DNA of 64,000 bases from Candidatus Puniceispirillum sp. (GTDB lineage: Bacteria; Pseudomonadota; Alphaproteobacteria; Caedimonadales; UBA1908): the NCBI GenBank assembly GCA_013822015.1, contig PNJU01000002.1, positions 192,500-256,499 on the forward strand. The letters run 5' to 3'. The notes beneath the pieces are model-generated. The model was not told the origin of the DNA and did not search any database. It was given only the letters and a program-made list of their open reading frames with translations. The position numbers and the translations under genes are program-made. Below, in pieces: positions 3,515-45,750 of this stretch; the first letter of the stretch is position 1; the number at the start of each line of letters is the position of its first letter.

Positions 3515-3638
3515 GCTAAAGATACTCCTAGTTATATTTTTTTCTTACACTACATTCTAGACAAGCGTCCCGCAAAGAATCAACCTTTATTAAGACGCTT
3601 GGCTAGAAAAAGTATCTTTTTTAAGATGTAGCAAGACC

Positions 3639-5006: not shown

Positions 5007-5046
5007 GTGCTCTCAATCCTTAATGTTGCTAATTTTCGTCAAGAAA

Positions 5047-5131
<85 letters not shown>

Positions 5132-5235
5132 ATGCGTGACTGTTTATCTAACCGACTTGTCCTTGATAACCTCGATTGGCAGAAAAAGCAACATGGGTTA
5201 GGATGGAAAATAAAATTTATTCTCGAGGGGATTTT

Positions 5236-5730
5236 ATGGATTTTAACCCAGCGCTTTGCCCGCCTTCCCCGTTCCATGCAACAGCTATCTATATGGATGG
5301 GTGTGGTATTCTTCTTCTAGGGCCCCCGGGCAGTGGAAAATCAGATTTGGCCTTGCGCTTGATCATGGAACGGGGGGCGCGCCTTGTTGCGGATGATCTG
5401 TGTGAAATTCTTCACAAACCAGATGGTCTGTGGGTACAGTGCCTCAAGGAAGGCGAGCGCCTTTTAGAAGTGCGCGGCCTGGGCATAGCCGCTATGGGTG
5501 AGGGACAATGGATCAAGTGTGCGCCCCTTGCCTTTGCGCTTCACCTTACCCGCGACAAAGACATTCCCCGCGAACCTGTCAGGCAAACCCTTCAAGGCAC
5601 CCACCTGCCCTTGTATGCATGCGACCCCTTTTGCGCCAGTGCGGCCGCTAAGATCAGCTTGCTTGTGCGCCACCATAAAGAAGAGGTGCGCCTGCTTTGG
5701 CCCGACACCCCCCTGCCCCATGCGGCCTGA
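5236..5730 (+). CDS. hprK: HPr kinase/phosphorylase C-terminal-domain protein (short alphaproteobacterial type)
   Basis: P-loop GILLLGPPGSGKSDLALRLI followed by GARLVADD. The ATG at 5236 is preceded by GAGGGG. The track start at 5176 lies only 45 nt from the tRNA and is probably too far upstream. Confidence 0.7.
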   Translation: MDFNPALCPPSPFHATAIYMDGCGILLLGPPGSGKSDLALRLIMERGARLVADDLCEILHKPDGLWVQCLKEGERLLEVRGLGIAAMGEGQWIKCAPLAFALHLTRDKDIPREPVRQTLQGTHLPLYACDPFCASAAAKISLLVRHHKEEVRLLWPDTPLPHAA

Positions 5731-5763
5731 CAGAGGCGCCCAACTACATGGAAAGATGTCATC

Positions 5764-6159
5764 ATGAACGCAAAATCACTTCTCGTGTCCTGTCTGGCAG
5801 TGCTTGCCTGCTGGCCCACCCATGCAGCAGGGGACGAGCTGACCCAAGGCCCCTTTGAATCGCCCTTCCCGCCCGCCCAAGCCTCTTTGGGTAGTTGTGA
5901 GCACGCCCTTGATGAGGAAGCGCTGGCACGCATCATGGGCGATTACCAAGCACAGCTGCGAACCCTCATGGGGACACTCTTTCCCCAAACGCAACCGCAC
6001 GCGCTCTCCTCTCAAGACGACACTGCACCCTCCTCCCCTGGCCCAAACGCAGCCCAGGGCAGTGATCTAACCCCCGCCTCAATATCTCAGGAGGCCTCAT
6101 TGACGGCCCCAACGGCATCCAGTGCAGGCTTCTTTCTGACCCAGGACGAGACGGCATAA
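5764..6159 (+). CDS. Small secreted hypothetical protein (131 aa)
   Basis: N-terminal signal-like sequence MNAKSLLVSCLAVLACWPTHAAGDE, with a P/S/T/Q-rich C-terminal half. No family recognised. Confidence 0.5.
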   Translation: MNAKSLLVSCLAVLACWPTHAAGDELTQGPFESPFPPAQASLGSCEHALDEEALARIMGDYQAQLRTLMGTLFPQTQPHALSSQDDTAPSSPGPNAAQGSDLTPASISQEASLTAPTASSAGFFLTQDETA

Positions 6160-6249
6160 GCACCCCCATGCGGCGCCCAGGGGCAACCCTTGGGCCGCCA
6201 TGCAGAGGAACGTTTTTTTCTGAAAAAGAAGTAATACTGACTTATTTTC

Positions 6250-6278
6250 TTGAATGTTTGCAAACATGTGTTTATTTT
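6250..6278 (+). promoter_or_regulatory. Candidate sigma70-type promoter with an embedded 14-nt perfect palindrome, upstream of the RNase III-like gene
   Basis: TTGAAT (6250-6255), a 17-nt spacer, then TATTTT (6273-6278). The spacer contains ATGTTTGCAAACAT (6254-6267), which is its own reverse complement. Confidence 0.25.
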
Positions 6279-6307
6279 GTACTGTTTTTTAACAGACAAG
6301 AAGGAAT

Positions 6308-8077
6308 ATGATGTCAATAAAACACCTCGGTCGACTGTTTCTCTCAGCAATGGTCGCAACCGCCCTGTACGCACAACCAAGCTGTGCGAGCAAACCCAAT
6401 AAAGAAAAAATCCCAGTCATCTGTGACCTTTTCTCCCAAGAAAATGATATCGATTATCCGGGGATTCAGGCGCACCTGCACTACACCTTCAAGGATCCCA
6501 TGCTCCTTAAAACCGCCCTTCGTCCCATGTTGCCCACGCCCCTACAGGGCGATAAAAACGCATATGACCTTCTAGAATTTCGTGGGGACGCGGTGCTTAA
6601 GCTGATCACGATGGACAGGCTCTTCGAGATCCTGCCCGGGCATATACGAGGACAGATGTCCACCTTGTGTGGAGACTTGGTGATGAATCACTGGTTGACA
6701 GAATACGCTCTGTGGAATTTGGATCTTGAGCGTTACTTACCTTGCCCCAGTGGATCTTACAAAGTCTGCGATGTCATGGAGGCACTCGTAGGCGCCGTTT
6801 ATGTGGATGGGGGCCCAAACGGACTTAGCCACGCCCGGCGCTTTGTCACCCTATTCTTGGACGATGAAACGCTCCATAACAAAATGCAAGAGATGTCTAA
6901 GACCTCTACACGCTTGGTCTTTACCCCCCAAATGACCCAGGATCAAAAGGATGCTCTGGCAAAGATCTGCAGGCCTGAGCGCCTAGGTAGTACCAACGCC
7001 AAGTCGCTGCTTAACGAGCTTCTTTTGGATCTCTTTGATGACAGGCCTGAATACACCACCCATTTTGAAAAGGGCGAGGATGGACATGTGCTTTTTCGCA
7101 CCCACGTCATTGGCGCCCAGATTGGCAAGACGAATCATGGCCACGGGCGCACCTGTCAAGAGTCTGAGGAAAATGCCGCCCGCCAGGCCATCAACACTCT
7201 GGCGCAAGCCCCCCTTTATTCCACCGGAAGCCCCAGTGGATCACCCAACAGCTTTCGTGTGCAACTGAAAGAAATGCTGGACTTTCTTGATCTTAAACTC
7301 ACAACGCGCAGCACAATGGAGGGAAAACCCCACGAACCCACCATTGGCTTTGAGTATCTTCTGGGTGAGAAACCCATCGGTGTTGGCCAGGGGTCCTCAA
7401 AAGCCCAGGCTGCAGAAATGGCGGCCGGGCAAGCCTGTGACGCCATCATCCAGTTAGAAGCGCAAAAACGCGCATCGCGCCACTCCTTAAGAGACTCTAT
7501 CTGGACAACACTCCAAGCCAACCGCGCAGCCCTGCAGGCCGCCACCCTCGCCAAACAAGCAGCTGCAGCCGCAGCAAGAAAAGCCGCCAAGACACCTGCT
7601 GTTTACTCGGCAAGTTCTGGAAGTGTTTTAGCGCCAGCGAGCGTGTCTTCTGCTACCGCCTCACCGGCTGCGTCCATCATCGGCACCGCTGTAGCAGCTT
7701 CAGTTGCTCCAGTAACCCCACCAGCGCCAACCCTGGTCACCTCTGTGCCAACAACGCCACCTGCTGCATCCGTGACCAACACCACGGTGGTTTCGACATC
7801 GGCGGCTTCAGTCCCCGCCCCCACAAAAACAGTGACATCCCAGGCAAATAAAGCCAAAGGAAATGGAAAACTGCCCAAACAAGGGCACATCCAAAAACCA
7901 AAGCCACCTGTGGCCACGGGCGCCCCGTCGGTTGCTGTGTCGCCACACAAGGGCAAAACCCCACAGTATGTTGGACCAAAGGCTGGTCCCAGAGCTCACA
8001 TAAAGATGCAACCTCAAACCAATGGAGCCCAAAAACCAGGATCTACCTCGTCCCATGCGCCAGTAAAAGCGGCCTAA
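6308..8077 (+). CDS. Signal-peptide-bearing RNase III-like protein with two dsRNA-binding domains and a low-complexity tail
   Basis: 589 aa. The leader is MMSIKHLGRLFLSAMVATALYAQPSCAS. The RNase III signature is LLEFRGDAVL...CDVMEALVGAVYVDGG, with the catalytic E/D positions retained. dsRBD 1 is AKSLLNELL...PEY...GHVLFRTHV...GHGRTCQESEENAARQAINTL. dsRBD 2 is GKPHEPTIGFEYLLGEKPIGVGQGSSKAQAAEMAAGQA. The C-terminal ~190 aa are A/P/S/T/V-rich and end lysine-rich. Confidence 0.8.
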   Translation: MMSIKHLGRLFLSAMVATALYAQPSCASKPNKEKIPVICDLFSQENDIDYPGIQAHLHYTFKDPMLLKTALRPMLPTPLQGDKNAYDLLEFRGDAVLKLITMDRLFEILPGHIRGQMSTLCGDLVMNHWLTEYALWNLDLERYLPCPSGSYKVCDVMEALVGAVYVDGGPNGLSHARRFVTLFLDDETLHNKMQEMSKTSTRLVFTPQMTQDQKDALAKICRPERLGSTNAKSLLNELLLDLFDDRPEYTTHFEKGEDGHVLFRTHVIGAQIGKTNHGHGRTCQESEENAARQAINTLAQAPLYSTGSPSGSPNSFRVQLKEMLDFLDLKLTTRSTMEGKPHEPTIGFEYLLGEKPIGVGQGSSKAQAAEMAAGQACDAIIQLEAQKRASRHSLRDSIWTTLQANRAALQAATLAKQAAAAAARKAAKTPAVYSASSGSVLAPASVSSATASPAASIIGTAVAASVAPVTPPAPTLVTSVPTTPPAASVTNTTVVSTSAASVPAPTKTVTSQANKAKGNGKLPKQGHIQKPKPPVATGAPSVAVSPHKGKTPQYVGPKAGPRAHIKMQPQTNGAQKPGSTSSHAPVKAA

Positions 8078-8096
8078 AACCCTTGGCCTAGACTTT

Positions 8097-8127
8097 TGGG
8101 TTAGCGCTGTGGAGGGGCGCTAACCCA
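8097..8127 (+). terminator. Hairpin downstream of the RNase III-like gene (no U-tract)
   Basis: TGGGTTAGCGC tgtggaggg GCGCTAACCCA: an 11-bp perfect stem 20 nt after the stop codon. Confidence 0.35.
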
Positions 8128-8336
8128 GCGGGCCTGAGAAAGTGCACCTCAATCCCCGCCCTCCCGCACTCAAATCCCGTCATGGCACGCACACAATAAT
8201 CGGCACCACTTAGCCCAAGAGAGCCAAAGGATGAAAAAATGGGCTGGTAATATAAGCCACTCACTCTTTCCCTATATCCATAATTAACAACTTTCTCTTG
8301 ACTCTTGTGATCTCTCCACTTTTTTTTCATTTTTTA

Positions 8337-8365
8337 TTGACAAAATCCAAAACAAAACACAAATA
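8337..8365 (+). promoter_or_regulatory. Candidate promoter of family A gene 1
   Basis: Perfect TTGACA (8337-8342), a 17-nt spacer, then CAAATA (8360-8365), with a T8 tract just upstream. The ATG at 8395 is preceded by GAGAGAGAAG. Confidence 0.3.
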
Positions 8366-8394
8366 CAACTTGTATTTAAAAGAGAGAGAAGTTT

Positions 8395-9303
8395 ATGACA
8401 TATATTAAAGCCCTTACACTTTGCACACTACTGGCACATATTCCCCTTTACGCATCAAGCGGAGTCCTTGACGTTGTTGAGCCCACATCCTCAAAACCAA
8501 CGCGGTCCATGCCTGCAGTATTATCAACGCTGCCCGAGACCATGCAGGCCTTGCACACCATCAAATCCATGTGCAAACCTGAGGAGCGTCTTCAGTTTAC
8601 GGCCTCCTCTAAATGGTACTCGCCCACTGCAGCAAATGTTCACACTGTTCTTTCCCACGATTTTTCCCCCTCACATCTGGGCGCGGCCCTGCGCTTTTGC
8701 GCCTCCATTACAACTGAGAACGCGCCCTTTCTAAAGGCAGTTCTTAAAGGCGCGACGTGGCAAATGTCCTTGGATCTTTTACCAGCATCTTTGGGGCTTT
8801 CCCATGAGGTTCTGCAGGGAGCAGCAGGCATTGAAGATCTGAGTGCACGCCTCACATTCCTCAAGCAATCACCACGCCCAGACACCTGGGTCCTTGGCAT
8901 GTTGGGTTCTGATCCCCTCATTGATAGCGCCGTCTTGGAGCACCACGTGAGAGAGCGCATCCTTATGAATCCCATCGGCATGAGCGCATTTTTTGTCAAA
9001 AGCCTCAAGCATGGCGATACGCTCACGCGCATGCGCCTGACAAGTTTTCTTCTCCACACGGATCCTTTGAGCGTGGGCGCGCATTTAAGTGATAAAAAAG
9101 CCCGTTTTGAAAAAATTGGGTTTCGCCAGAACTCACGCCTTGCAAGGACCCTCGACGCAAAGAAAGTGCTACCGCCCTTTGGGTTTCTGCTTGACCGCAG
9201 CCCAGACGGCAATGTCACACGCATCACCACGCGTTATCCAGACTTCTGGGCTCCTTTGCCGGCATGGACCCACTCACCGTCCCAGCACCGCCCTGTAGAA
9301 TAA
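8395..9303 (+). CDS. Secreted hypothetical protein, paralog family A member 1 (302 aa)
   Basis: Leader MTYIKALTLCTLLAHIPLYASSG. It shares a core with three other ORFs in the window: WY.PT...F.P.HLGAALR...ENAPFLK.VL...LLPA.LGLS...RL.FL...PRPDTW..GMLG.DPL.D...F.V..LK.G...TRMR.T.FL...PD...P.P.WT..PS. Confidence 0.75.
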   Translation: MTYIKALTLCTLLAHIPLYASSGVLDVVEPTSSKPTRSMPAVLSTLPETMQALHTIKSMCKPEERLQFTASSKWYSPTAANVHTVLSHDFSPSHLGAALRFCASITTENAPFLKAVLKGATWQMSLDLLPASLGLSHEVLQGAAGIEDLSARLTFLKQSPRPDTWVLGMLGSDPLIDSAVLEHHVRERILMNPIGMSAFFVKSLKHGDTLTRMRLTSFLLHTDPLSVGAHLSDKKARFEKIGFRQNSRLARTLDAKKVLPPFGFLLDRSPDGNVTRITTRYPDFWAPLPAWTHSPSQHRPVE

Positions 9304-9435
9304 TCATACGTCGCCTCGCTTTTCTTTGCCAAAGGCGGGGCGCACGACCATTTGCCCATACAAAGGGATGCCATTGACCTTCCTGCATAACCCTTTAGAA
9401 TGAAAAACATACGCGGCCTTACATGAGGTGACGGC

Positions 9436-10200
9436 ATGTTCTATGTTTGGGTTTTTCTGACCTTTGTTGCCCTTACGCGTGAAGACGCCTTCGCGTCATC
9501 CCATAATGACGTCTCCCAAACATTTGAGGAAACCTCTCACCCTTCCTTCAAAAGAGCCCTTGATTGGTACCCACCAAGCGAGGATGAGATGAAAACCGTC
9601 ACGTCCTGGGGATTTGAGCCCGCACATATGGGGGCAGCCCTACGCTACCGTGCTTTTATCAAGTCCGAAGATACACCCGTCCTTCAAAAGGTACTTGCTA
9701 GCGCCCCTTGGGAGGAGGCTTTTTCCATGATTGCACGCGCTGCCGGGGCGCACGCGACGGACCTTGCGCTTGCAGCTACCCTCCCCCTTCCAGAGCGCCA
9801 AGAATTCCTCAGGGGCAGCCCAAGAGAAGACACCTGGATTTACGCACATATTGGCCTTGATCCCGATATCGACATGCATGTGATGACCTACCATATGCGG
9901 CGCCTGCTGGGTGAAAACCGCCCCCAAACAGAGGAGACTCTCCTCAACATGGTCTGCGCGCGTGACGAGCTCACCAAAAAACGCGTCGCAACATTTTTGT
10001 GGAACGCGCTTTACGATGAGCACTTCGGATACTGTTCTCGTTACGCGGCCCTGGGAATTATTGACGCCTCCCCCCTCATGAGACAGGTTCAGCATATGCG
10101 AGGGCTTGTCTTGCACGGCCTTGTGCATGAAGGAGCTGACGGCACCTCCAAAGGTCGCCTGCGCGTCGTTGCACCCTGGCTTGCCCCCGCCCGCCTTTAA
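9436..10200 (+). CDS. Secreted hypothetical protein, divergent family A member 2 (254 aa)
   Basis: Hydrophobic N-terminus MFYVWVFLTFVALTREDAFASS, with no basic n-region. It keeps the N-terminal family A motifs (WYPPSEDEM..GFEPAHMGAALRYRAF...DTPVLQKVL...SPREDTWIY), but the C-terminal third diverges. RBS is GAGGTGA. Confidence 0.65.
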   Translation: MFYVWVFLTFVALTREDAFASSHNDVSQTFEETSHPSFKRALDWYPPSEDEMKTVTSWGFEPAHMGAALRYRAFIKSEDTPVLQKVLASAPWEEAFSMIARAAGAHATDLALAATLPLPERQEFLRGSPREDTWIYAHIGLDPDIDMHVMTYHMRRLLGENRPQTEETLLNMVCARDELTKKRVATFLWNALYDEHFGYCSRYAALGIIDASPLMRQVQHMRGLVLHGLVHEGADGTSKGRLRVVAPWLAPARL

Positions 10201-10244
10201 AGGTAATACCCGTAATTCCTTGGCAGTTTATAGAAATTTGTTTT

Positions 10245-10273
10245 TTGACAAATGAGGAAGAAGGGGTTAGTGA
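10245..10273 (+). promoter_or_regulatory. Candidate promoter of family A gene 3
   Basis: Perfect TTGACA (10245-10250), a 17-nt spacer, then TAGTGA (10268-10273). The ORF-track start at 10245 is the TTG of this hexamer. Confidence 0.3.
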
Positions 10274-10310
10274 TGAAGAGTCGGTGCGGTTTTTCCAGGA
10301 GTCACACACC

Positions 10311-11282
10311 ATGCGTACACTCGCCTCTCTCACCCTTGCGATCCTTTTTTCTTGTAGTTCCCTTTACGCGTCCAACGCACACAAGCGCAAAATAGATGAG
10401 CTCATAGGCTCAGACTCTGACTCAGACTCAGACTCAGACTCAGAGACATTTATGCCTATCAGTGCACACGTGGCCCTTGGCCAGGAGGAAGGAGGCGAGC
10501 CATATATCCCCGAAGACCTTGTGCCCCATCTCAAGACCTTTGTATCCCCGTGCGATCCCGAAAAAGAAATGGATCAGTTTATTGAACCCCTCGCGTGGTA
10601 CCGCCCGACACCCGAGGAGCTGACTTCCATCACGACCATGGGATTCGAGCCTCGTCACCTGGGCGCGGCCCTGCGCATGCGCGCGCACCTAACGCTTGAG
10701 AACACGCCCCTGCTTAAAGGAGTGCTCAAAGACAGTGATATCCCACAATCCCAGCGTTTGCTGCCCGCCGCCATGGGCCTTTCGAACGGGCAACTCAGAG
10801 CGGCGGCAAAGATTGAGAACATCGAAGAACGCCTCAATTTTCTCATCAATGCACAAAGGGAGGACGCGTGGATCTTTGGCATGCTAGGCGCCGACCCAAT
10901 CCTTGACAACCTCGCCATCAACGCCAACATGAGGGCACGTGTTCTTATAAACCCAGACAAGATGAGCTCGTTTTTCATCCGCAACCTCAAAGAAGGGACC
11001 AACATCACACGGATGCGTTTCACAGGCTTCCTTAGCGAGCTGACCGGCTTAATTACCGACAAGCTCAGCCGCGCAAACCGACTGGGATTTGAGGACAACT
11101 CCCACGTCATGGAAACCGTCAAAAAGAAAGGCCTTCCCCGCCCCTTTAGCGCAATCTTCTGGGAAATGCGCCTCAATGATGGCAAGGTCATGCCACGTAT
11201 CACAATCAAAAAGCCCGATTACCTCGACCCCATGCCCCTGTGGACCTATAAGCCGTCCACTTATCTCGACCCTATCCCATGA
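10311..11282 (+). CDS. Secreted hypothetical protein, family A member 3, with an (SD)n tract
   Basis: The ATG at 10311 is preceded by AGGAG. Leader MRTLASLTLAILFSCSSLYASNA, then an SDSDSDSDSDSE tract, then the full family A core (WYRPTPEELTSITTMGFEPRHLGAALRMRAHLTLENTPLLKGVL...GMLGADPILD...PDYLDPMPLWTYKPSTYL). Confidence 0.75.
   Translation: MRTLASLTLAILFSCSSLYASNAHKRKIDELIGSDSDSDSDSDSETFMPISAHVALGQEEGGEPYIPEDLVPHLKTFVSPCDPEKEMDQFIEPLAWYRPTPEELTSITTMGFEPRHLGAALRMRAHLTLENTPLLKGVLKDSDIPQSQRLLPAAMGLSNGQLRAAAKIENIEERLNFLINAQREDAWIFGMLGADPILDNLAINANMRARVLINPDKMSSFFIRNLKEGTNITRMRFTGFLSELTGLITDKLSRANRLGFEDNSHVMETVKKKGLPRPFSAIFWEMRLNDGKVMPRITIKKPDYLDPMPLWTYKPSTYLDPIP
10409..10446 (+). repeat. In-frame hexanucleotide microsatellite (TCAGAC/GACTCA)n encoding (Ser-Asp)n
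   Basis: ctcagactctgactcagactcagactcagactcagag: about 5-6 tandem 6-nt units inside family A gene 3. Confidence 0.85.
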
Positions 11283-11386
11283 GGTAGCGCGCCAGCGCTC
11301 TCTCACGCAGAAAAAATGGTGCTTAAAGACTCCCACAAGAAACGCGATCGTCATTAATTATTTATTGTATTGTTTTTTTATTATAC

Positions 11387-11415: not shown

Positions 11416-11482
11416 AAGCATCGGACAGTAAAAGTGCCGTTCTTATTCACTTGTCCCGGCACAAGAAAGGAGAAGTAACATC

Positions 11483-12664
11483 TTGCGTAAACTATTAGCC
11501 AGCGCTGGCATTTTTATTCAATTCACATCATTTGCATTCGCATCGGACCCCACCCTACAAGACCTGCACTTGGTCATTGGCTCGACCCGAGGCGGATATT
11601 TGTCCCAACCTCTGGCAAAAAGAGTTTACCAGGAGGCAAACGCAGACCTATCCCACGCGGGTACATTCTCGGGAAAAGCCATCACCGTTGACATCGCTCC
11701 CTGCGAAAACCCCAAACTTGCAAAACGTCACTGGCAAGCGGACGCGGAAACCTTTGAGTTTCCGGGCACCATCCAAAATGTTTATCTTGAAAGGCTGTTT
11801 ACCTTTGACCAAAAATCGGGTGATCACACAAAAGACCATATCTCGAACGTCCTTCAAAATCTCACAAAGCACATGATTCCTGCTCAGAACAAGGTTGAGA
11901 TTGAGTGGCACCCTTGCGTCGGCATGGCGTATCTGCCCCCCAAGGCGAGTAAAGAGGAAAGGGAGCACATCCTTAACACCCAAAGGCGACAAAATCCTTT
12001 TCAGGGCGTCATGGATATTAACGAAGTTCTCACCGCCACCAAACTTGCTGTTTTCGACAGTGTGAACTTAGACGGCGTACCCAACAAGTCCTACATTGAT
12101 GCGGCCAATGCTTTTAAAAAACCCCTCACCCAGCTCATCAACTTTTATGTGGGCTCGAAGCCTAGCCTCGTGCGCACGCAGCTGATTCAACGTCTGAGAT
12201 TTGAAGCCAATGTTTTGACGCTGTTAAGCCAAGATCCGAACAAAAGATCTGTCCCCCTTCTGGGCTCCATTACCGCTGATTTCGGCAAATTAGATGACAC
12301 AACATTTTCAGTAGTCGCATCAGATCCAGAAGACGACGGTAAAATTTTGGTACGTGACCGCCAGGGTTATTCTTATCTTTATGACACGCAAGAAGAGGTC
12401 GCAAAAGCCGTTTCCAGAGGGGGTACTGTGCGCGGCGTCCTCCATGGTTATATGTCCTTTATGACTGGCTCTTGCCTCAATTTCTTGTGGAGCGATATGG
12501 CTGTTGAGATTCAAAAAGGGCTTGTCCAAGAAAAGCTTGCCTCACTCGGTTTTCGTGCCATTGAGATCAAGCGTAAAAAGAGCCCACACAACCGCCGTCA
12601 AAATGTTCATATCATCAGCACGGTTTATGACCCAGGCAACGCTGTAGAAGAACAAAAAGCCTAA
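11483..12664 (+). CDS. Secreted hypothetical protein (393 aa, TTG start)
   Basis: TTG start preceded by AAGGAGAAG. Leader MRKLLASAGIFIQFTSFAFASDP. No recognisable domain. Confidence 0.6.
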   Translation: MRKLLASAGIFIQFTSFAFASDPTLQDLHLVIGSTRGGYLSQPLAKRVYQEANADLSHAGTFSGKAITVDIAPCENPKLAKRHWQADAETFEFPGTIQNVYLERLFTFDQKSGDHTKDHISNVLQNLTKHMIPAQNKVEIEWHPCVGMAYLPPKASKEEREHILNTQRRQNPFQGVMDINEVLTATKLAVFDSVNLDGVPNKSYIDAANAFKKPLTQLINFYVGSKPSLVRTQLIQRLRFEANVLTLLSQDPNKRSVPLLGSITADFGKLDDTTFSVVASDPEDDGKILVRDRQGYSYLYDTQEEVAKAVSRGGTVRGVLHGYMSFMTGSCLNFLWSDMAVEIQKGLVQEKLASLGFRAIEIKRKKSPHNRRQNVHIISTVYDPGNAVEEQKA

Positions 12665-12773
12665 AGCACCCCTCCCATGACCGACGTCTGAATCCTTTTT
12701 CAGATGTCGGTCACTGTTCTCATTATGCCGCAACTGACCTTTTCCAGAAGCCAACATTACTGTCAAAAAAAAC

Positions 12774-12801
12774 TTGAAAAGAAGAAATATCTTCCTATAT
12801 A
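12774..12801 (+). promoter_or_regulatory. Candidate promoter of the UIM-like/CAP gene
   Basis: TTGAAA (12774-12779), a 16-nt spacer, then TATATA (12796-12801), with an A8 tract immediately upstream. Confidence 0.35.
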
Positions 12802-12880
12802 CATAAGAGCATTGGGAGATTTTATGACACTCTCCTCAATATTTCTTCTGTCCACTCCCTCAAACAATAGGACGACCCAC

Positions 12881-13969
12881 ATGAAAAATCTGAAGAAAAT
12901 CCTCCTCGTTTCACTTCTAACAAGCGGCGCCTTTGTAGCTAGCGCGACTCATTATTCAGACGAGGAAATGAACGCCATGGCAGCTGCTGCCAGAATCAGC
13001 CTCCATGACCTACGCGCACTTGGTCAGCAGATGCCCTTGGATGATTTCTACGCCCCCGTTGCGTACATGTTCGCAGCTCAAGAGGGGCGCGGCGCATCGG
13101 ACCAAGCCACAAACGACTATCTCTTTGCCCGTCAGCTGGCACAAGGCAACACAAGCACTCCAAGAATGTCTGAACCCGACGCTGATTTTCTCCTTGCCCT
13201 GCGCCTTTGCGAAGAGGGGCCTCAGGCGCCAAGCACACGCTCTGCGGCCACACCGTCCCCTCAGCCTCACGCCCCGCAAGACACAGAAGCTGATTTAGAG
13301 CTTGCTCTGCGCCTCTACGAAGAAGAAAGTCAAGCTCGGTTTGTGCCCACAACCATATCCCCTACCCTCCTTGGGACCACGCATGCGCCGCACGTGAGCG
13401 TTCAGGACGAGGACTACCTCCTTGCCATGAGGCTCTTTGAGGAAGAAAGGCAAGCTGCGTCCACGGTGCGCGTCATATCTACGCAAGCACCGCAAACCGC
13501 TGCATCTTCTCACGTCGCTGCCCCGAGCCAGGAAGATGAGGAACGCTCCTTTTTTGATCTGACCAACGCACGTCGCCAGGAGCACGGCCTTGGGCTTCTG
13601 ACATGGAACCCGCTGCTTGCCCAGATCGCCCGGGAGCACTCCCAAAAAATGGCCGATACCTTCACCTTTGCCCATGACATTGAAGGCAAGAGCTTTGGTG
13701 ATCGCATTGAAGGGCGCTACAACGGCTCCATGGCCGGGGAAAACTTATATATGTCTACAGCTGCCTACAAAGTGAGCGAGCGCGGCATCACCCCTTCTTC
13801 TGTGAAGTATTCATCCATGGCAGAGGCCGTCGAGGGGCTCATGAACTCACCAGGACACAGGGAAAATATTTTGAAGCCAGAGTTTAATGAGCTTGGCGTA
13901 GGAATTATCGTCACCGCCCTTGGTGGGCAGAAGTACTGGACGCAAGTGTTTGGCAGGAAGCAGGACTAA
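12881..13969 (+). CDS. Secreted protein with tandem UIM-like acidic/LALRL repeats and a C-terminal CAP/SCP/PR-1 (YkwD-like) domain
   Basis: The ATG at 12881 is preceded by AGGA. Leader MKNLKKILLVSLLTSGAFVASA. Repeats are DEEMNAMAAAARISLHD, NDYLFARQLAQG, PDADFLLALRLCEEG, TEADLELALRLYEEE and QDEDYLLAMRLFEEE. C-terminal CAP motifs are FFDLTNARRQEHGL...AREHSQKMA...GENLY...LMNSPGHRENIL...FNELGVGI...YWTQVFG. Confidence 0.75.
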   Translation: MKNLKKILLVSLLTSGAFVASATHYSDEEMNAMAAAARISLHDLRALGQQMPLDDFYAPVAYMFAAQEGRGASDQATNDYLFARQLAQGNTSTPRMSEPDADFLLALRLCEEGPQAPSTRSAATPSPQPHAPQDTEADLELALRLYEEESQARFVPTTISPTLLGTTHAPHVSVQDEDYLLAMRLFEEERQAASTVRVISTQAPQTAASSHVAAPSQEDEERSFFDLTNARRQEHGLGLLTWNPLLAQIAREHSQKMADTFTFAHDIEGKSFGDRIEGRYNGSMAGENLYMSTAAYKVSERGITPSSVKYSSMAEAVEGLMNSPGHRENILKPEFNELGVGIIVTALGGQKYWTQVFGRKQD

Positions 13970-14286: not shown

Positions 14287-14315
14287 TTGACAAGAAGCAT
14301 AAAAGTTTCCATGCT
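14287..14315 (+). promoter_or_regulatory. Candidate promoter of family A gene 4
   Basis: Perfect TTGACA (14287-14292), a 17-nt spacer, then CATGCT (a weak -10). The ORF-track start at 14287 is the TTG of this hexamer. Confidence 0.25.
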
Positions 14316-14346
14316 TTCCAGTGTGTCAACACAGGAGAAGAGCACT

Positions 14347-15300
14347 ATGAAATCTATTTTTTATGCGACATCCTTAGTCCTTAGCTTTCTCACGATCGCC
14401 CCACATATCCAGGCATCAAATAGTCCTTTGGATGCCCTTGATGTAGAGGAAGGGACGAAAACCGTGCGCCCCGTCGGACTTGACGTTGCTCTTAATGTCG
14501 GATACGGCAACGAAATAAACATACCAAGCACACTCGTCCAAAGTCTGAATGACTTTGTCACGTCATGCGCCGGTAAAAGTGAGATGAATCAGTTCCACAG
14601 CCCCTTCATGTGGTATCGTCCCACGCCAGAAGAACTCACGCGCATTTCCGACCTTGGGTTCGCGTCATGTCACCTTGGTGCGGCCCTACGCATGCGCGCG
14701 CATCTCTCTTGCGAGAACGCGCCTCTTATCCAAAGAGTGTTAAGAGACAGCAGCTACGCAAAAGCACAGTTTCTGCTCCCTGCCGCCATGGGGCTTTCCC
14801 ACACACAGCTTGAAGAGGCCGCCAACATCGAAGACGTTCAGGAGCGTCTCGATTTCTTGATACAAGCCCCACGCCCAGATACATGGGTTTATGGTATGCT
14901 GGGGGCGGATCCCCTTCTTGATCACCTGGCCATCGAGACGAGTATCAGGACGCGCATTGCAAATAACCCAGACCTGATAAGTTCGTTTTTCGTTCGCAAC
15001 TTGAAGGAAGGCACAGATCTCACGCGCCAGCGCATCACGGGGTTTCTTTTGCAAGTCACCGGGAATGTGTCCGAGGGAAAAACACGCGCAGAACACCTTG
15101 GCTACAGCAAAGTGTCAAACGTTGTACACGCCCTTCAAAAGAAAAAACTCAAACGCCCCTTTGGCCTCTTCCGCGAAGCGTTTCCTTTCACTGATGGCAG
15201 CGCAGGCACGGATCTTAAAAATCACACGCCCGATTATCTTGATATAATGCCCCAATGGACATACACTCCGTCGACCTATCTCAAGCCTCGGCGCTCATAA
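14347..15300 (+). CDS. Secreted hypothetical protein, family A member 4
   Basis: The ATG at 14347 is preceded by AGGAGAAG. Leader MKSIFYATSLVLSFLTIAPHIQASNS. Full family A core, closest to member 3 (WYRPTPEELTRISDLGFASCHLGAALRMRAHLSCENAPLIQRVL...GMLGADPLLD...PDYLDIMPQWTYTPSTYL). Confidence 0.75.
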   Translation: MKSIFYATSLVLSFLTIAPHIQASNSPLDALDVEEGTKTVRPVGLDVALNVGYGNEINIPSTLVQSLNDFVTSCAGKSEMNQFHSPFMWYRPTPEELTRISDLGFASCHLGAALRMRAHLSCENAPLIQRVLRDSSYAKAQFLLPAAMGLSHTQLEEAANIEDVQERLDFLIQAPRPDTWVYGMLGADPLLDHLAIETSIRTRIANNPDLISSFFVRNLKEGTDLTRQRITGFLLQVTGNVSEGKTRAEHLGYSKVSNVVHALQKKKLKRPFGLFREAFPFTDGSAGTDLKNHTPDYLDIMPQWTYTPSTYLKPRRS

Positions 15301-33531: not shown

Positions 33532-36500
33532 GTGCCCACACTTGCCCTGTCATATGACGTTTGTTTTCAGGATCTTTACACGGCAAAAGGGATTGCACGC
33601 ATCGACGCGCATTTCCTCGATTGGCTTGAAAAGCAGGCACCAAACGCCCACGAAACGCTCATCACGCTGAGAAAAAAACCCATTTCGGACAAGAGCCCCG
33701 CTTACAGCGATTTTCTTGTGACCTTAGCGCCCTACGCGGCGCGCTTTGCGCAGCATCTTTTTCAAGTTCCCCCGCTTCAAAATCCCCTTGAAGGATTGCA
33801 AAAGCTTGCGGACTTTCGAAGGCTCTTCGTGGGCAAGCGCGTCCTGCCCGGACTCAAGGACGGCACCATCTCGCCCCTTTTTGACGAAGCGCTTGACGCC
33901 ATGGACGAGGTGGATTTTGCAACCAGGGCCTTGGGCGGAGATGATCCTGACTTCGTGGCACGCACCCTCGCTCACACGGCGTGGGCTGTGACACAAGACA
34001 AACCGCGCAAGCTTTTTACTGGCCCCCAGCCGACTGACTATGACCATCTTCTTGACGCGCACGAGACCCCTCGGGGCATTGTCGCATGCAAAACCCACCC
34101 GCGCATGGGGTTTGATCTGACCCACACACCCCTTGCCCCCCAAGACGCCTTTCTTGAGGCCAGAGCCTGTCTATATTGCCACAAAAGAGATAAGGACTCC
34201 TGCGCCAAGGGTCTGAGAAGCCCTGACGGCATTCCCCAAACAAATCCGCTGGGCGAGGCATTGACGGGCTGCCCCCTGGGGCAAAAAATTTCCCAGATGG
34301 CGTATCTCAAGGCCCAAGGCGAGCCTCTGGCGGCCCTCATTGTTGCCTGCCTTGACAATCCGCTTCTGGCGGCAACGGGGGACCGGATTTGCACGGATTG
34401 CTCCCGCGCGTGCATCTTTCAAAAGCAAACGCCCATCGATATCCCCGCCCTTGAAAGTGCCATCTTTGAGGAGGTCCTTCACAGCCCCTGGGGCTTTGAG
34501 ATCTACAGCCTTTTCACCCGCTGGTCTCCCCTGTCCTTGACCCGCCCTGTGCCAGGCGACTCTACCGGTCACACGCTCCTTGTGGCGGGGATGGGGCCCA
34601 GCGGCATCACCATGAGTCACCATCTGATGAACGCAGGCCACACCGTCGTGGCGCTGGAGGGACTGGCGGTGGCCCCTGTGTCCCACGATCTTCTGACAAC
34701 CCCCATTTATGACGTGAATGAGTCCCTCTACACACCCCTTTCCCAGAGGCAGGTCAGTGGTTTTGGAGGGGTGGCAGAATACGGCATCACCGTGCGCTGG
34801 GACAAAAACCGTCTGATGATCCTGCGCCTTTTGTTGGAGCGTCGTAAAGAATTCACTCTCCTTGGCAGCACCCGCCTTGGTAGTCAAATCACGCCCCAGC
34901 AAGCCCTGGGCATGGGCTTCTCCCACGTCGCCCTATGCTTAGGGGCCGGCGCCCCCCATGTGCCAGACAACGTCGACACGCTCCCGCGCGGCGTGCGCAC
35001 GGCGTCGGACTTTCTCATGACCCTCCACACGGGCGGCGCCTACCTTGAGAATTCCTTCAGTACACTGACCCTGCGCCTACCTCTTTATGTCCTGGGCGGG
35101 GGGCTGACGGCTGTGGACACGGCGACGGAGGCCCTTGCTTACTATCCTCTTCAAGTGAAGCGCTTTGCCCGGCGCTACCGCCAGCTTGTGGAGGCCACAA
35201 GCAAGGAAGAAACAAATGCCCTTTGGACCACTCAAGAGCATGAAGAGGTCGCAACTTTTCTCGCGCACGCGCGCGCCCTTGAAGAGGAAGACGCCCTTGC
35301 CCAAAAAGAATCGCGCGCACCAAATTATCTGCCCCTCCTCACTGCTTGGGGTGGCGCACACATTCTTTATCGCAGCGCCCTCACCAAGGCCCCCGCTTAC
35401 CGCAAAGGCGCCCATGAGCTTCAAATGGCACTGGAAGAAGGCATCGTCGTGCAGAACGAGACCCAGCTTCACAGCCTGATCACTGACGCCCAGAACCGCT
35501 TGACCGGCCTACGTGTGACGCGCAGTGGTGCCTTGGAGGATCTGCCGGCTGGCACCCTTCTCATTGCGTCGGGCACCCTGGAGAACGCGCAGCTCCCCCG
35601 CACCCAGGATCCCCGCATCTCTTTTCACGGAGATATGGACGACGCTTACCGGGGCAGCGTCGTGGGCGCCATGGCCAGCGCCACCCACGGTGCCCGCGCC
35701 ATCTGTGAAACCCTTTCCCACCAGACCCCGGCACCCACAGGCGCGCAGGATCTCGCAAAAGCTCTTAGGAAAGATACCCAGGCTTACGTGGAAAGCCTCA
35801 TACAGCTCACCCCCACCACCTGGGAAATTATCCTTTTTACGCCGGCAGCCGCGCGCGCCTTCCAGCCTGGCCAATTTTTCCGCCTCCAGTGTGCCACAGG
35901 GCCCTTTAAGACCGAGCCGCTTGCCCTCACTGGCGCCCATGTGGACGTAGACAAAGGACTCCTGTCCCTCATTATTCTTGATAGCGGCGCCAGCAGTTAT
36001 CTCACAGGTTTTCTTAAGAAAGGTGATCCTGTCAGTCTCATGGGGCCCACGGGCGCGCCTACGCCCCTTCCCCATGGCAAAAAAGTGCTCCTCATTGGGG
36101 GTGGCCTTGGGAACGCGGTCCTGTTCTCCATTGGCAGGGCGCTAACGTCGCGAGGGTGCCACGTGCTTTATGTGGCTGGTTATCGCAGCGCTGAACATAT
36201 TTTCAAAAAAGAAGATGTAGAGGCGAGCTCTACCCAGGTGATCTGGGCCTGCGAAGAAGGCGCTGCCCCTGCCCCAGGACGTCCGGGTGACGTGGCAGTA
36301 ACTGGTACAGTCATTGACGCGCTGGGGGCTTACACACGGGCACCTCATGCAAGCTGCTTGAACGGCGCACCTGATTTTGTCCTGACCATTGGATCCGCAG
36401 GCATGATGGAGGCGGTTGCACACGCCATGGGGGATCCTTTCTTCAATAAAGCACGCACATTGGCGAGCCTCAACAGCCCCATGCAGTGTATGATGAAGGG

Positions 36501-36693
36501 CATTTGTGGCGCGTGTTTGCAACCAGGGCGTGACGCGCGCACAAAAAAGAGGTATATGTTTTTTTCTTGTACCTGCCAAGATCAGCCGTTACAAGAAATT
36601 GACTTCGTGTCTCTCAAGGCACGACTTACGCAAAACATATTAGAAGAGAAATTAAACAGCGCGTGGGTACGCAAGGTTCCGCCCCCCGCCTAA
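33532..36693 (+). CDS. Large fused FAD/NAD(P)-dependent oxidoreductase (GltD/NfnB-like module plus PyrK/NfnA-like ferredoxin-reductase module)
   Basis: 1053 aa. Cys clusters are CLYCHKRDKDSC...GCPLGQ...CTDCSRAC. The dinucleotide fold is LLVAGMGPSGITMSHHLMNAGHTVVALE. The C-terminal FNR-like part has FQPGQFFRL...LLIGGGLGNAVLFSIG and a [2Fe-2S]-type motif CMMKGICGACL...FFSCTC. Confidence 0.7.
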   Translation: MPTLALSYDVCFQDLYTAKGIARIDAHFLDWLEKQAPNAHETLITLRKKPISDKSPAYSDFLVTLAPYAARFAQHLFQVPPLQNPLEGLQKLADFRRLFVGKRVLPGLKDGTISPLFDEALDAMDEVDFATRALGGDDPDFVARTLAHTAWAVTQDKPRKLFTGPQPTDYDHLLDAHETPRGIVACKTHPRMGFDLTHTPLAPQDAFLEARACLYCHKRDKDSCAKGLRSPDGIPQTNPLGEALTGCPLGQKISQMAYLKAQGEPLAALIVACLDNPLLAATGDRICTDCSRACIFQKQTPIDIPALESAIFEEVLHSPWGFEIYSLFTRWSPLSLTRPVPGDSTGHTLLVAGMGPSGITMSHHLMNAGHTVVALEGLAVAPVSHDLLTTPIYDVNESLYTPLSQRQVSGFGGVAEYGITVRWDKNRLMILRLLLERRKEFTLLGSTRLGSQITPQQALGMGFSHVALCLGAGAPHVPDNVDTLPRGVRTASDFLMTLHTGGAYLENSFSTLTLRLPLYVLGGGLTAVDTATEALAYYPLQVKRFARRYRQLVEATSKEETNALWTTQEHEEVATFLAHARALEEEDALAQKESRAPNYLPLLTAWGGAHILYRSALTKAPAYRKGAHELQMALEEGIVVQNETQLHSLITDAQNRLTGLRVTRSGALEDLPAGTLLIASGTLENAQLPRTQDPRISFHGDMDDAYRGSVVGAMASATHGARAICETLSHQTPAPTGAQDLAKALRKDTQAYVESLIQLTPTTWEIILFTPAAARAFQPGQFFRLQCATGPFKTEPLALTGAHVDVDKGLLSLIILDSGASSYLTGFLKKGDPVSLMGPTGAPTPLPHGKKVLLIGGGLGNAVLFSIGRALTSRGCHVLYVAGYRSAEHIFKKEDVEASSTQVIWACEEGAAPAPGRPGDVAVTGTVIDALGAYTRAPHASCLNGAPDFVLTIGSAGMMEAVAHAMGDPFFNKARTLASLNSPMQCMMKGICGACLQPGRDARTKKRYMFFSCTCQDQPLQEIDFVSLKARLTQNILEEKLNSAWVRKVPPPA

Positions 36694-41944: not shown

Positions 41945-44116
41945 TTAGTTTGGAATTCTATCAAATTTCTTTTGAGCTAGGACAATTTGCCCTCTGTTCC
42001 CTGTTTTTTTTGTTGCGTCAAGTATCAACGCCGCCACCTGTTTCTCCTTAGAAGACGCGCCTGAATCAAGAATGATTTGAATCATCGTTTGTCGCTGCGC
42101 AATCTGCGCCCGTACTTGCGCACGGCGTCCAGCGTCCTGTTCTTGCAAGACAGTCTCTTGAAGGACTCTGACCTCAGCCTGCAGCCACCCAAGAGGCGTT
42201 GTCAGAGAGCTCCTCTCCACGCAAAGCGCCTCGGCCATCTGGTCAAGTTGTTCGTTAAGGCTGCGCACCCTGGCAGCGCCGTAAGATCCTGCACTAGCAA
42301 GCTCAATAAGCACCTGCGCGCCTGAAGACTCACCGACAGTCGGCGTGCGTGGCGCAGTCACTGCCACTGGTGCTGAAGAGATACTGACTCCTGATTGCTC
42401 CTCCAAAGAAAGTGGACTCACCAACTCTTGCATCACCTCAGCGCTAGCTGCTCCCAAACCTTGATTTTGCGTCGGAACAACCTCTTGAACAAGCGTCAGT
42501 GACGTGCGCACAGGCGCACTTGAAGCCAGAGACACTGCTGGCGCTTCGTCGACGAGCGCAGTTACAAATTCAAGTGTCGGGCAGTTGGAGGCGCCCATGC
42601 GACTTTCGTGCTCTGCGTCGCTTGGGTTGTAAGGGGTCTCTCTAACAGCGGGTGAGACCTCTTCAGCCGGCGTAGGCACAACAACCTGAGGGACACGCGC
42701 GCCTTCGATCTCTTGCAAACGCGCCTCAATAAGCGAGATTTCGTCGCGTGCATCTGGTGTTAAACCTGCCAGTCGCGCGCGCAGCAAATGCTCCTCACCT
42801 TGGGCAGAAAGGACGGCGCGCATGCGCAAATCACCGCGCTCTTCCTCAAGACGAGCGATCTCAGCGTGAAATGCATCTATGGCCCCTCGTGAAGCGGCAA
42901 TGTCCTGCTCCACCTGAGACAGCGTGCGCGGCGCTGGATCCGAGGAAGAAGAGGCGATCATGGTCAGTGGATAAAGGTCCGCACGTTGACGGACAAGGTC
43001 ACCGGCGCGCGCGGCGTCGCCTGTCCTCGTGGCGAGTACGAGCGCCGCATCAATGCGCCCAAGACTGGCTAAACGTGCCTCAAAAAGTCCTGCAAGCGCA
43101 GCGTCTCCGGCTGCGTTGGCTTCATCACGGGCCAGACGGATCCGCTCGTCCACAGTGGCACTTTCTTGCTGTTGACGCAATCTCAATGTCGTACGCTCAC
43201 CTTGAAGCCTTGCAAGATGTTCCTGCTCTTGGGCAAGGTTTCCACGCGCCCCTTCCAGAGATGCGAGAACGGTTTCCATGGTGCGCGCGGCCGGAGCTGT
43301 AGGGGTGGAGAACTCTGTTTCCAGTTCTGGCGAAAGTGCGGGCGTGAGAGCGCCTGGTGTGACACTTGAAACTGGCTGCTCTGCCATTATAGACGCCCAC
43401 GTCAAAACCGCGCGCAGACCACGCGCAAAGGGCTCGCTGGGCGTGTCAGAGCCAAACAGAGAAAGAGGCGAGATGCCAAGCATTGTCGCGGGGTCAAGGC
43501 TTCCATCCGCTCCCACCCCAATGCGCGCATTGTGCGCACCACTCAAAAAGACGGCGTACGCACGGTTTAAGCTACGTGTTTCCTGCGCTCCATTACGAAG
43601 CATATGAAGGACATCAATGGCTGAAACACGTGATTGCCCTCGTAAAACGCCACGCAAAGGACTATTGCGGGGCTCATCTGCTGACGGTGCATCTGACTGG
43701 CCCGCCATACGGGACGCCCAAGAGAAAAGACCATACACACCCCGTGCAAATGGCTCAGTTTCAGTGTTACCACCAAACAGAGTCATTGCTGCGGGGATGC
43801 CGTGCATAGTCGTAGGGTCAAGGGTTCCATCTTCCAAAAATACCACATTCCTATCGTGGGCAGCGCTCAAAAAGACACGGTAAGCGGGGTTCATGTGGCG
43901 TGTTTCCGGTGCTCCTGATTGAAGAAGGTTCAAGATTTCAACAGCCGATCTATCCTCAGGCACAGATACCTGTGCTGGGCTTGTCCAAGAGCCAAAGACG
44001 CCCCCTAAGGCTTCAGACGAGAGTGATGGCCATGGGGTATCAGTTGAGGAGCCATGGGCCGACACACTCACAAGGGCTGTCGCCAAAAGCATTGTTTTAA
44101 AAAGGTTATTGTGCAT
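41945..44116 (-). CDS. Large secreted repeat/coiled-coil protein, family C member 1 (723 aa)
   Basis: The ATG at 44116 (MHNNLFKTMLLATALVSVSAHG) is preceded by GGAGAGAG. It has two tandem ~90-aa modules (..RSAVEILNLLQSGAPETR..AY.VFLSAAH...DG.LDP......LFG......PFARG....L.WAS.MA), then a long Ala/Arg/Glu/Leu-rich predicted coiled coil and an S/A/V/P-rich segment. Confidence 0.75.
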   Translation of the reverse strand: MHNNLFKTMLLATALVSVSAHGSSTDTPWPSLSSEALGGVFGSWTSPAQVSVPEDRSAVEILNLLQSGAPETRHMNPAYRVFLSAAHDRNVVFLEDGTLDPTTMHGIPAAMTLFGGNTETEPFARGVYGLFSWASRMAGQSDAPSADEPRNSPLRGVLRGQSRVSAIDVLHMLRNGAQETRSLNRAYAVFLSGAHNARIGVGADGSLDPATMLGISPLSLFGSDTPSEPFARGLRAVLTWASIMAEQPVSSVTPGALTPALSPELETEFSTPTAPAARTMETVLASLEGARGNLAQEQEHLARLQGERTTLRLRQQQESATVDERIRLARDEANAAGDAALAGLFEARLASLGRIDAALVLATRTGDAARAGDLVRQRADLYPLTMIASSSSDPAPRTLSQVEQDIAASRGAIDAFHAEIARLEEERGDLRMRAVLSAQGEEHLLRARLAGLTPDARDEISLIEARLQEIEGARVPQVVVPTPAEEVSPAVRETPYNPSDAEHESRMGASNCPTLEFVTALVDEAPAVSLASSAPVRTSLTLVQEVVPTQNQGLGAASAEVMQELVSPLSLEEQSGVSISSAPVAVTAPRTPTVGESSGAQVLIELASAGSYGAARVRSLNEQLDQMAEALCVERSSLTTPLGWLQAEVRVLQETVLQEQDAGRRAQVRAQIAQRQTMIQIILDSGASSKEKQVAALILDATKKTGNRGQIVLAQKKFDRIPN

Positions 44117-44240
44117 TATTTCTCTCTCCAAGTGTTATAAACAGCAACTTAACGTCGACACCATTATAAGGCGCGCCATAAGCTGGCCTGACATATAGGA
44201 AGAAAAAAACACCCTGTCAACGAAACGGGAAAAATAAATT
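44073..44240. repeat. Dispersed direct repeat, copy 1 (leader plus 5'UTR/promoter of family C gene 1)
   Basis: agggctgtcgccaaa..cattgttttaaaaaggttattgtgcattattt.tctctccaagtgttataaaca...cttaacgtcgacacc...ggcgcgccataagctggcctgacatataggaagaaaaaaacaccctgtcaac recurs almost verbatim at 45583-45750. Confidence 0.85.
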
Positions 44241-45626: not shown

Positions 45627-45750
45627 TATTTTTCTCTCCAAGTGTTATAAACAACAGCTTAACGTCGACACCTTTAAAGGGCGCGCCATAAGCTGGCCTG
45701 ACATATAGGAAGAAAAAAACACCCTGTCAACAAAAGTGGAAAAATATATT
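45583..45750. repeat. Dispersed direct repeat, copy 2 (leader plus 5'UTR/promoter of family C gene 2)
   Basis: Near-identical to 44073-44240; I saw only a handful of substitutions or indels by eye. Confidence 0.85.

Follow-up and report, generated by a model that had tools for sequence, protein, structure and literature searches.

An accessory RNase III with a predicted signal peptide, two double-stranded RNA-binding domains and a basic tail belongs to a discrete bacterial family

In bacteria, RNase III is viewed as a housekeeping enzyme of the cytoplasm, and a gene in a 64,000-nucleotide stretch of an alphaproteobacterial metagenome-assembled genome (MAG) raises the question of whether that description fits every member of the class. 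The gene is an open reading frame (ORF) of 589 amino acids at 6308..8077 on the plus strand of that stretch (GenBank assembly GCA_013822015.1, contig PNJU01000002.1, positions 192,500 to 256,499), which is called the window here. A sequence-only reading had described its product as an exported RNase III paralog with two double-stranded RNA-binding domains (dsRBDs) and a long disordered tail, and had nominated it as an effector directed at the double-stranded RNA (dsRNA) of a host. Is the protein an RNase III that could still cut, would it leave the bacterial cytoplasm, and on what would it act? In our assessment the odds are about even (a probability near 0.5) that it is a dsRNA nuclease which is exported and active and acts on the dsRNA of a host, much like the RNase III suppressors of viruses.

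The ORF lies exactly where the sequence-only reading had placed it, and the motif strings quoted there were all recovered from the translation: LHYTFKDPMLLKTAL (residues 57-71), LLEFRGDAVL (88-97), CDVMEALVGAVYVDGG (154-169) and KAKGNGKLPKQGHIQKPKPP. The catalytic domain occupies residues 53-200 (6464..6907, plus strand, as are all parts of this gene given below) and carries the signatures D87-L-L-E90-F-R-G-D94 and C154-D155-V-M-E158. Pfam Ribonuclease_3 (PF00636) matched residues 89-169 with an E value of 1.4e-10 and a score of 42.2 bits (cutoff 27). The best match in the PDB was the Aquifex RNase III (E 1.1e-11), and the closest solved relatives are the enzymes of Aquifex, Thermotoga and E. 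coli. The score against TIGR02191, the NCBIfam RNase III equivalog, was 102.1 bits and thus below the cutoff of 166.25, which accounts for its entry as a hypothetical protein at NCBI. Two AlphaFold models were made, one from 6 sequences with a predicted local distance difference test (pLDDT) score of 70.5, and a deeper one of the mature residues 28-403 from 27 sequences with a pLDDT of 90.3 and a predicted template modeling (pTM) score of 0.83. Both contain a helical RNase III core, a helical linker, two dsRBDs of alpha-beta-beta-beta-alpha fold and a long C-terminal helix. In a Foldseek comparison, the model core superimposed on the Aquifex endonuclease domain (1i4s/1jfz) with a TM score of 0.78-0.79 and an rmsd of ~3 Å. 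Enzymes of amoeba giant viruses, ascoviruses and iridoviruses were also among the RNase III fold matches, all of them weaker than the bacterial ones.

The linker (residues 201-228, 6908..6991) is helical in both models and exceeds the short one of canonical RNase III (Rnc) in length. It leads into dsRBD1 (residues 229-302, 6992..7213) and dsRBD2 (residues 314-386, 7247..7465; pLDDT 83-97). The two dsRBDs of the sequence-only reading are borne out by two stretches of Pfam dsrm (E 2.9e-07), the best at residues 231-298 and the other in dsRBD2, by a hidden Markov model (HMM) of the family dsRBD and by both models. Residues 305-381 also gave weak matches to the dsRBDs of PKR. The last helix of dsRBD2 extends into a single long helix that reaches residue ~402 and opens the C-terminal extension (residues 387-589, 7466..8074), in which this basic helix is followed by a low-complexity part made of A/P/S/T/V and by an end rich in Lys. 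The extension has a net charge of +22. Within it, the tail proper (residues 404-589), which had been put at about 190 residues, measures 186, of which 43 are Ala, 24 Pro, 21 Ser, 20 Thr, 18 Val and 19 Lys or Arg, and none Asp or Glu.

The predicted Sec-type signal peptide covers residues 1-27 (6308..6388) and consists of the n-region MMSIKHLGR, made basic by K5 and R9, the h-region LFLSAMVATALYA, with a Kyte-Doolittle value of 1.91, and the c-region QPSCA. A basic n-region, an h-region within the usual 10 to 15 residues and small residues at -1 and -3 are what Sec export and signal peptidase I (SPase I) recognize, and all are present here. The predicted SPase I cut falls after A27 (SCA|S, 27/28), with an alternative after A22 (LYA|Q, 22/23). 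No lipobox of the form L-[AS]-[GA]-C was found in the protein; the residues before C26 are Q-P-S, and the position of this Cys is not kept across family members. SecA is encoded within the 64-kb window. A Shine-Dalgarno-like GAAGGA (6300..6305, plus strand, by direct reading) lies 2 nt 5' of the ATG at 6308 and 5 nt 5' of a second ATG at 6311. A consensus scan of the coding strand of the gene returned neither a sigma-70 promoter nor a terminator. A regulatory RNA 5' of the gene was considered and set aside, as the only Rfam matches are two tRNAs.

Whether such a leader is an accident of one gene could be judged from its relatives. In a first homology search with the full-length protein, the low complexity of the tail crowded the candidates and only the protein itself and its paralog emerged. 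The search was rerun without the tail and gave five more long homologs, including P0002. A profile search of 1.84 billion representatives then found 33 proteins at E <= 1e-30, followed by a sharp drop to generic RNase III, and on these scores we treat the window RNase III as a member of a family that is discrete, undescribed and made up of about 30 clusters. The full-length members share a common layout, with a hydrophobic leader, an 'NKE...FS...ID(Y/F)' box, the RNase III domain, dsRBDs and a low-complexity tail. By the family HMM, the number of dsRBDs ranges from 2 to 5 (e.g., P0011, P0014 and P0023), and of the 26 members with a tail, 25 have one of net positive charge, often with Lys clusters at its end. 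A scan of genome contigs with narrow peptide patterns taken from 6 close members found one locus, which is a lower bound and no gauge of how rare the family is. In the library that we searched, no paper joined RNase III with Holosporales or its genera, a review of Holosporales mentions no ribonuclease, and a general literature search on secreted bacterial RNase III returned nothing relevant.

The call of the leader rests on physicochemical criteria, on conservation across the family and on a negative control set of 64 ordinary Rnc proteins. For the most hydrophobic 12-residue stretch upstream of the catalytic domain, 27 of 31 family members as called gave a value of 1.9 or more and thus have a hydrophobic leader, while all 64 ordinary Rnc stayed at or below 1.01 and have none. 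Errors in the called start explain two of the three apparently leaderless members: P0277 equals P0022 plus MKKISSFIFKSALILTSSLHSSYT, and an in-frame upstream ATG of P0014 yields MNKFVLILIACCSLNCFG. At least two members (L009 2947..3000; P0022 versus P0277) have a called start downstream of their leader, and automated annotation therefore under-reports the signal peptide of this family. The leader is thus no start-codon artefact, as the sequence-only reading had argued. Its pattern is kept across the family and its sequence is not. A site obeying the -1/-3 rule lies 1-5 residues before the NKE box in most members, and the N-terminal flank is the more positive one in 25 of 28 members, with the flanks equal in 3 and reversed in none. 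This charge distribution favors an N-in/C-out orientation and argues against a cytoplasmic tether of the RNase Y kind. Together, these observations make a strong case that the leader is real and points outward, so that the window RNase III is probably exported.

Directly after the predicted cut comes a box specific to the family (residues 28-52, 6389..6463; SKPNKE...FS...IDY). Residues N31, K32, E33, F42, S43, D49 and Y50 are invariant in a 6-member alignment, and the box is structured in the deeper model (pLDDT 73-95). It has no counterpart in canonical Rnc, relative to which the family has about 44 additional N-terminal residues.

The four acids that bind metal in RNase III, equivalent to E41, D45, D114 and E117 of the E. 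coli enzyme, are all present. E90 (codon 6575-6577), D94 (6587-6589), D155 (6770-6772) and E158 (6779-6781) align to E40, D44, D107 and E110 of Aquifex, so that the first pair is encoded within 6575..6589 and the second within 6770..6781. The catalytic acids are retained, as had been claimed. Among 28 family members, E90 is kept in 27 (one has Asp) and D94 and E158 in all. The D114 equivalent is Asp in the window RNase III and a few others, and Asn in most family members, including the paralog in the same genome. In a deep mutational scan of E. coli rnc, E41, D45 and E117 tolerated no mutation and D114 was the single mutation-tolerant position of the active site; a D114G enzyme had a fitness of 0.99 and cleaved 48% of substrate in a gel assay, versus 69% for the wild type (PMC10037077). 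The residue pattern of the family is thus the tolerance pattern of an active RNase III, and therefore fits selection for catalysis. The window RNase III looks active, and catalysis is plausible on this pattern. The family also has signatures of its own, in that THxS is replaced by xP(M/L)LP (P73-L75-P76 in the window), a conserved Glu is replaced by Arg114, and an invariant Cys154 stands beside a metal ligand.

Where did this enzyme come from? The sequence-only reading had called the arrangement of two dsRBDs eukaryotic. The order of domains, a single RNase III domain ahead of two dsRBDs, is indeed that of plant RTL2 and budding-yeast Dcr1, which have no signal peptide, unlike the window RNase III. 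A eukaryotic origin of the catalytic domain was rejected on the scores per domain, the best structures also being bacterial. The catalytic profile of the family scored a median of 71 bits per domain on short bacterial Rnc, which make up the whole of the top 39, versus 52 on Dicer-like proteins; whole Dicer-like proteins rank high because they have two RNase III domains each. We class the catalytic core as bacterial class 1, not Dicer-like, and the likeness to RTL2 and Dcr1 would then be a convergent architecture, useful as an analogy; the layout thus stands as described, and a eukaryotic origin is not supported. Nearest to the window RNase III in both sequence and fold are the bacterial class 1 Rnc enzymes (Aquifex 1yyk/2nug, E. 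coli 7r97), with which it shares the single catalytic domain, the E-x-x-x-D ... D-x-x-E ligands and a C-terminal dsRBD. Rnc is a leaderless, cytoplasmic protein of ~220-250 amino acids with one dsRBD. The window RNase III differs from it in its length of 589 amino acids, its signal peptide, the 25-residue structured box, the longer linker, the second dsRBD and the 186-residue polybasic tail, and also in lying outside a lepB-rnc-era locus and in being variably present.

This variable presence bears on whether the gene could be the housekeeping rnc of its organism. A second copy, P0002, with 49% identity, is encoded in the same MAG. In a rough neighbor-joining tree, the window RNase III (P0001) and P0002-P0004 form one clade with a bootstrap of 99/100. 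At >= 90%, the trigger factor encoded in the window clusters with one from GCA_020161545.1 (the 'CAED1' MAG). A CAED1 contig (L010) and two metagenome contigs (L011 and L012) are syntenic with window positions 1-17,884, in the order cyclase, clpX, clpP, tig, HprK-like gene, exported paralogs, CAP-domain gene and metQIN. Between the window and L010, blastn gave 93% identity over window 1407-5490 and 84% over window 8320-13968, and the intervening window 5491-8319 faces only 335 bp. The segment of about 2.5 kb that is absent from all three contigs (5731..8250, plus strand, boundaries approximate) holds the RNase III gene and an exported 131-amino-acid ORF. The HprK-like gene is homologous to its end across this comparison (58% amino acid identity), and beyond the segment homology restarts ~70-140 nt ahead of a 302-amino-acid gene. 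Within the HprK-like gene (window 5176..5730, plus strand; L010 9274..9768, minus strand), DNA identity was seen to fall from 93% to unalignable at about 5490. As the DNA alignment is lost while the protein is still 58% identical, divergence must climb sharply toward the junction of the indel. CAED1 retains only the other paralog type, P0004, which is 84% identical to P0002. This distribution fits a duplication within the lineage, after which the copies diverged and were differentially lost, instead of a recent transfer. A genomic island linked to tRNA-Leu was rejected, as neither a direct repeat of att type nor an anomaly in GC was found, and what looked like synteny of a 184-amino-acid upstream ORF in the window and in L001 was dismissed because the proteins are not homologous.

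No lepB or era neighbor was present at the 9 loci inspected (the window, L001-L004 and L006-L009), and no neighbor is common to these loci. Given the paralog in the same MAG and the absence from the syntenic locus of three related assemblies, the gene is accessory, and the sequence-only reading was right both on this point and on the lack of an rnc-era setting. The variation in copy number, in number of dsRBDs and in presence or absence suggests a rapid evolution of the arms-race type.

The surroundings of the gene were considered for what they may say of a host. The gene heads a run of about 9 kb of leader-bearing proteins without a Pfam match. Four of the ORFs in it (8395..9303, 9436..10200, 10245..11282 and 14287..15300, all plus strand) are paralogous, with leader-like N termini and 30-40% identity, and we noted in them invariant motifs such as WY.P, H.GAALR and R.D.W..G.DP..D, and orthologs in CAED1 (L010). 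The run also encodes a 393-amino-acid leader-bearing protein without a Pfam match (11483..12664, plus strand) and a protein with a CAP/SCP (cysteine-rich secretory protein) domain (12704..13969, plus strand). The 131-amino-acid ORF in the presence/absence segment (5764..6159, plus strand) has a clear leader, MNAKSLLVSCLAVLACWPTHAAG, and no Pfam match. Further along the window, large Pfam-less ORFs of 399-1053 amino acids stand among housekeeping genes (33532..36693, 41945..44131, 44343..45641, 45957..47156 and 59275..60789) and amount to a high share of lineage-specific proteins. None of the neighbors seen in the 64-kb window encodes a secretion system. A role in a defense system was rejected, since neither the window RNase III nor 8 neighbors gave a PADLOC match.

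The names attached to the family point in the same direction as one gene of the sister genome. All informatively named members are of Holosporales type, namely Caedibacter sp. 37-49, Candidatus Paracaedibacteraceae bacterium, Alphaproteobacteria bacterium 41-28 and CAED1, and most members are metagenome sequences without a name. Caedibacter sp. 37-49 has been placed in Holosporales, branching within Rhodospirillales (PMC6447387). In CAED1, just past the position of the left edge of the window, a 593-amino-acid protein with an F-box-like domain and leucine-rich repeats (LRR) is encoded next to lon (L010 18619..20400, plus strand, contig JAIUNT010000013). The F-box-like domain scored E 2.6e-08 and 34 bits, against a cutoff of 24.3, and the protein is predicted to be a eukaryote-type ubiquitin-ligase adaptor, a typical eukaryote-directed domain set. 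An association of the window organism with eukaryotes would fit these observations.

For the function of the protein we propose the following course. The signal peptide would direct the pre-protein to SecA/SecYEG, and SPase I would cut it near A27|S28. The mature protein would dimerize through its catalytic domain, as other RNase III enzymes do, and, exported by Sec, it would therefore work outside the bacterial cytoplasm, making Mg2+-dependent staggered cuts in dsRNA. Its second dsRBD and its basic tail, free of acids, could make it bind dsRNA more tightly or target it to a compartment. The most likely substrate would be dsRNA of the host cell, such as triggers of RNA interference (RNAi), small interfering RNA (siRNA) duplexes and structured host RNAs. 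The outcome would be that small-RNA pathways of the host are blunted or rewired, as they are by viral class 1 RNase III suppressors.

Exported ribonucleases are familiar in the form of periplasmic RNase I/T2 and secreted barnase-type enzymes, which have Sec leaders and act outside the cytoplasm, as is proposed here. However, these have unrelated folds, cleave single-stranded RNA or without specificity, and have no dsRBDs. A functional parallel is offered by the RNase III found in sweet potato chlorotic stunt virus (RNase3/CSR3 of SPCSV), ascoviruses and iridoviruses, where a parasite that lives inside cells turns a small enzyme of bacterial type on the dsRNA or siRNA of its host. The SPCSV class 1 RNase3 cuts both siRNA and dsRNA and so suppresses RNAi (PMC4938523), and viral class 1 RNase III silencing suppressors are a precedent for the action proposed here (PMC4938523, PMC7280029). 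The viral enzymes differ from the window RNase III in being made in the host cytoplasm without an export signal and in having a single dsRBD and no basic tail, and there is no sequence kinship to the window family beyond the superfamily. Viral contigs yielded no member of the family, and a phage origin was rejected on this ground. As for the host side, the RNAi of Paramecium processes bacterial RNA (PMC4330347). In its fullest form, which we put forward tentatively, the proposal is that symbionts of Holosporales type export multi-dsRBD RNase III into the cytoplasm or nucleus of their protist hosts, where it would destroy dsRNA triggers and siRNA duplexes. The tails would serve in nuclear or nucleolar targeting or as RNA clamps, and the enzyme would disable host RNAi against bacterial RNA or reprogram small-RNA regulation, as the first bacterial counterpart of the viral suppressors.

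Several observations weigh against a host-directed nuclease. A Sec leader guarantees delivery to the periplasm only, and no translocation signal was identified in addition to the lack of secretion-system genes in the window. The classical nuclear localization signal (NLS) core, K[KR]x[KR], does not occur in the window RNase III. In place of E. coli E38 and E65 stand D87 and N127 (the latter by the Aquifex alignment), and a conserved Glu is R114, so the active site is not fully canonical. The benefit of suppressing host RNAi is not obvious, because RNAi cannot reach mRNAs inside the bacterium. On the side of the organism, the lifestyle is one that we infer. Only a minority of family members have organism names, the window organism has a GC content of ~53% and a gene content that looks fairly complete, and the closest relatives of its trigger factor are unclassified Alphaproteobacteria MAGs, followed by Rhodospirillales-type taxa at ~45%. 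The MAG is labelled Candidatus Puniceispirillum sp. by NCBI. Separately, that label looks doubtful, as the window is syntenic with and 84-93% identical to the CAED1 MAG and the nearest named trigger factors belong to unclassified Alphaproteobacteria. The effector claim of the sequence-only reading thus gains circumstantial backing, from the Holosporales-type symbionts among the named members and from the F-box/LRR protein of the sister genome. The analysis showed the architecture, the fold, the kept catalytic residues, the family-wide leader, the accessory status and the taxonomic pattern of the named members; export, cleavage, release from the periplasm and a host target are what we infer.

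Other explanations have to be set beside this one. The protein might be an exported nuclease that stays in the periplasm or at the cell surface and has no host target, working in scavenging, RNA clearance or defense against RNA phages, with the tail as an envelope spacer or anchor as in TolA/TonB. What has been said of the Sec leader and of translocation speaks for this, the A/P-rich basic low-complexity tails do resemble envelope spacers, and the neighbors at L006 include a secreted-type subtilisin and an Exo_endo_phos nuclease/phosphatase. However, RNase III releases oligonucleotide duplexes and not nucleotides, which would make it a poor scavenger, the PADLOC result gives no link with defense, and no member occurred among viral contigs. 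Two to five dsRBDs fit a periplasmic protein poorly, as do the NLS-like K[KR]x[KR] Lys clusters in the tails of many other members (e.g., PKKRKPRKRNKNKKP in P0012), and the named members come from protist symbionts. We consider an envelope-resident or extracellular enzyme with no host target rather doubtful. It is unlikely that the exported protein mainly masks dsRNA rather than cutting it, the RNase III fold serving as a scaffold for dimerization and binding and the dsRBDs and basic tail holding the RNA. Such a role would suit the Asn at the D114 equivalent in most members and in the in-genome paralog, the Asn in place of E65 (N127) in six close members and the dsRBD number of up to 5, and E. 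coli RNase III E117K does bind dsRNA without cutting it (PMC10037077). Yet the window RNase III keeps all four metal ligands, the positions of zero tolerance in E. coli are kept in 27-28 of 28 members, which would be unexpected for a pure binder, and D114 substitutions leave the E. coli enzyme active (PMC10037077).

The remaining two explanations would keep the enzyme in the cytoplasm. In one, the hydrophobic segment is an uncleaved anchor and catalysis takes place inside, as in RNase Y, on bacterial RNA to be processed. Membrane-anchored bacterial RNases such as RNase Y and RNase E do exist, and in some family members 20-24 residues in a row are uncharged, which is long enough to cross a membrane. 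The h-region of the window RNase III, by contrast, has only 13 residues, small residues at -1 and -3 are kept right before the NKE box, the flanking charges of 25 of 28 members are those of an N-in/C-out segment with none reversed, and close relatives dispense with the gene; together these make a tethered enzyme quite improbable. In the other, the gene is a housekeeping rnc with an odd or miscalled N terminus. In favor of this, no canonical Rnc was found by HMM among the six-frame ORFs of the window and L001-L004, where only family genes matched, a result whose scope is the 64-kb window and the loci fetched. This explanation is scarcely credible in the face of the TIGR02191 score of 102 bits against a cutoff of 166, the two dsRBDs and 186-residue tail, a leader found family-wide with no downstream start that would keep the NKE box, the two copies per genome, and the absence of the window copy from the three syntenic contigs and of era and lepB from its neighborhood.

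An exported nuclease acting on host dsRNA therefore remains the reading that we prefer, at the even odds given above. Direct cleavage of host dsRNA or small-RNA pathways is, to our knowledge, so far known from viruses only. RNase III itself is well known, and what is new is apparently an exported, multi-dsRBD branch of the bacterial enzyme that is specific to protist symbionts, its members now annotated as hypothetical because they score under the TIGR02191 cutoff. By combining an export signal with further dsRBDs and a basic tail, such a conserved family would take the biology of RNase III into the extracytoplasmic space. If the host is indeed the target, this would be the first bacterial effector to cleave the dsRNA or small-RNA pathways of a eukaryote directly, and the almost unknown set of effectors of the Holosporales would gain a concrete molecule.

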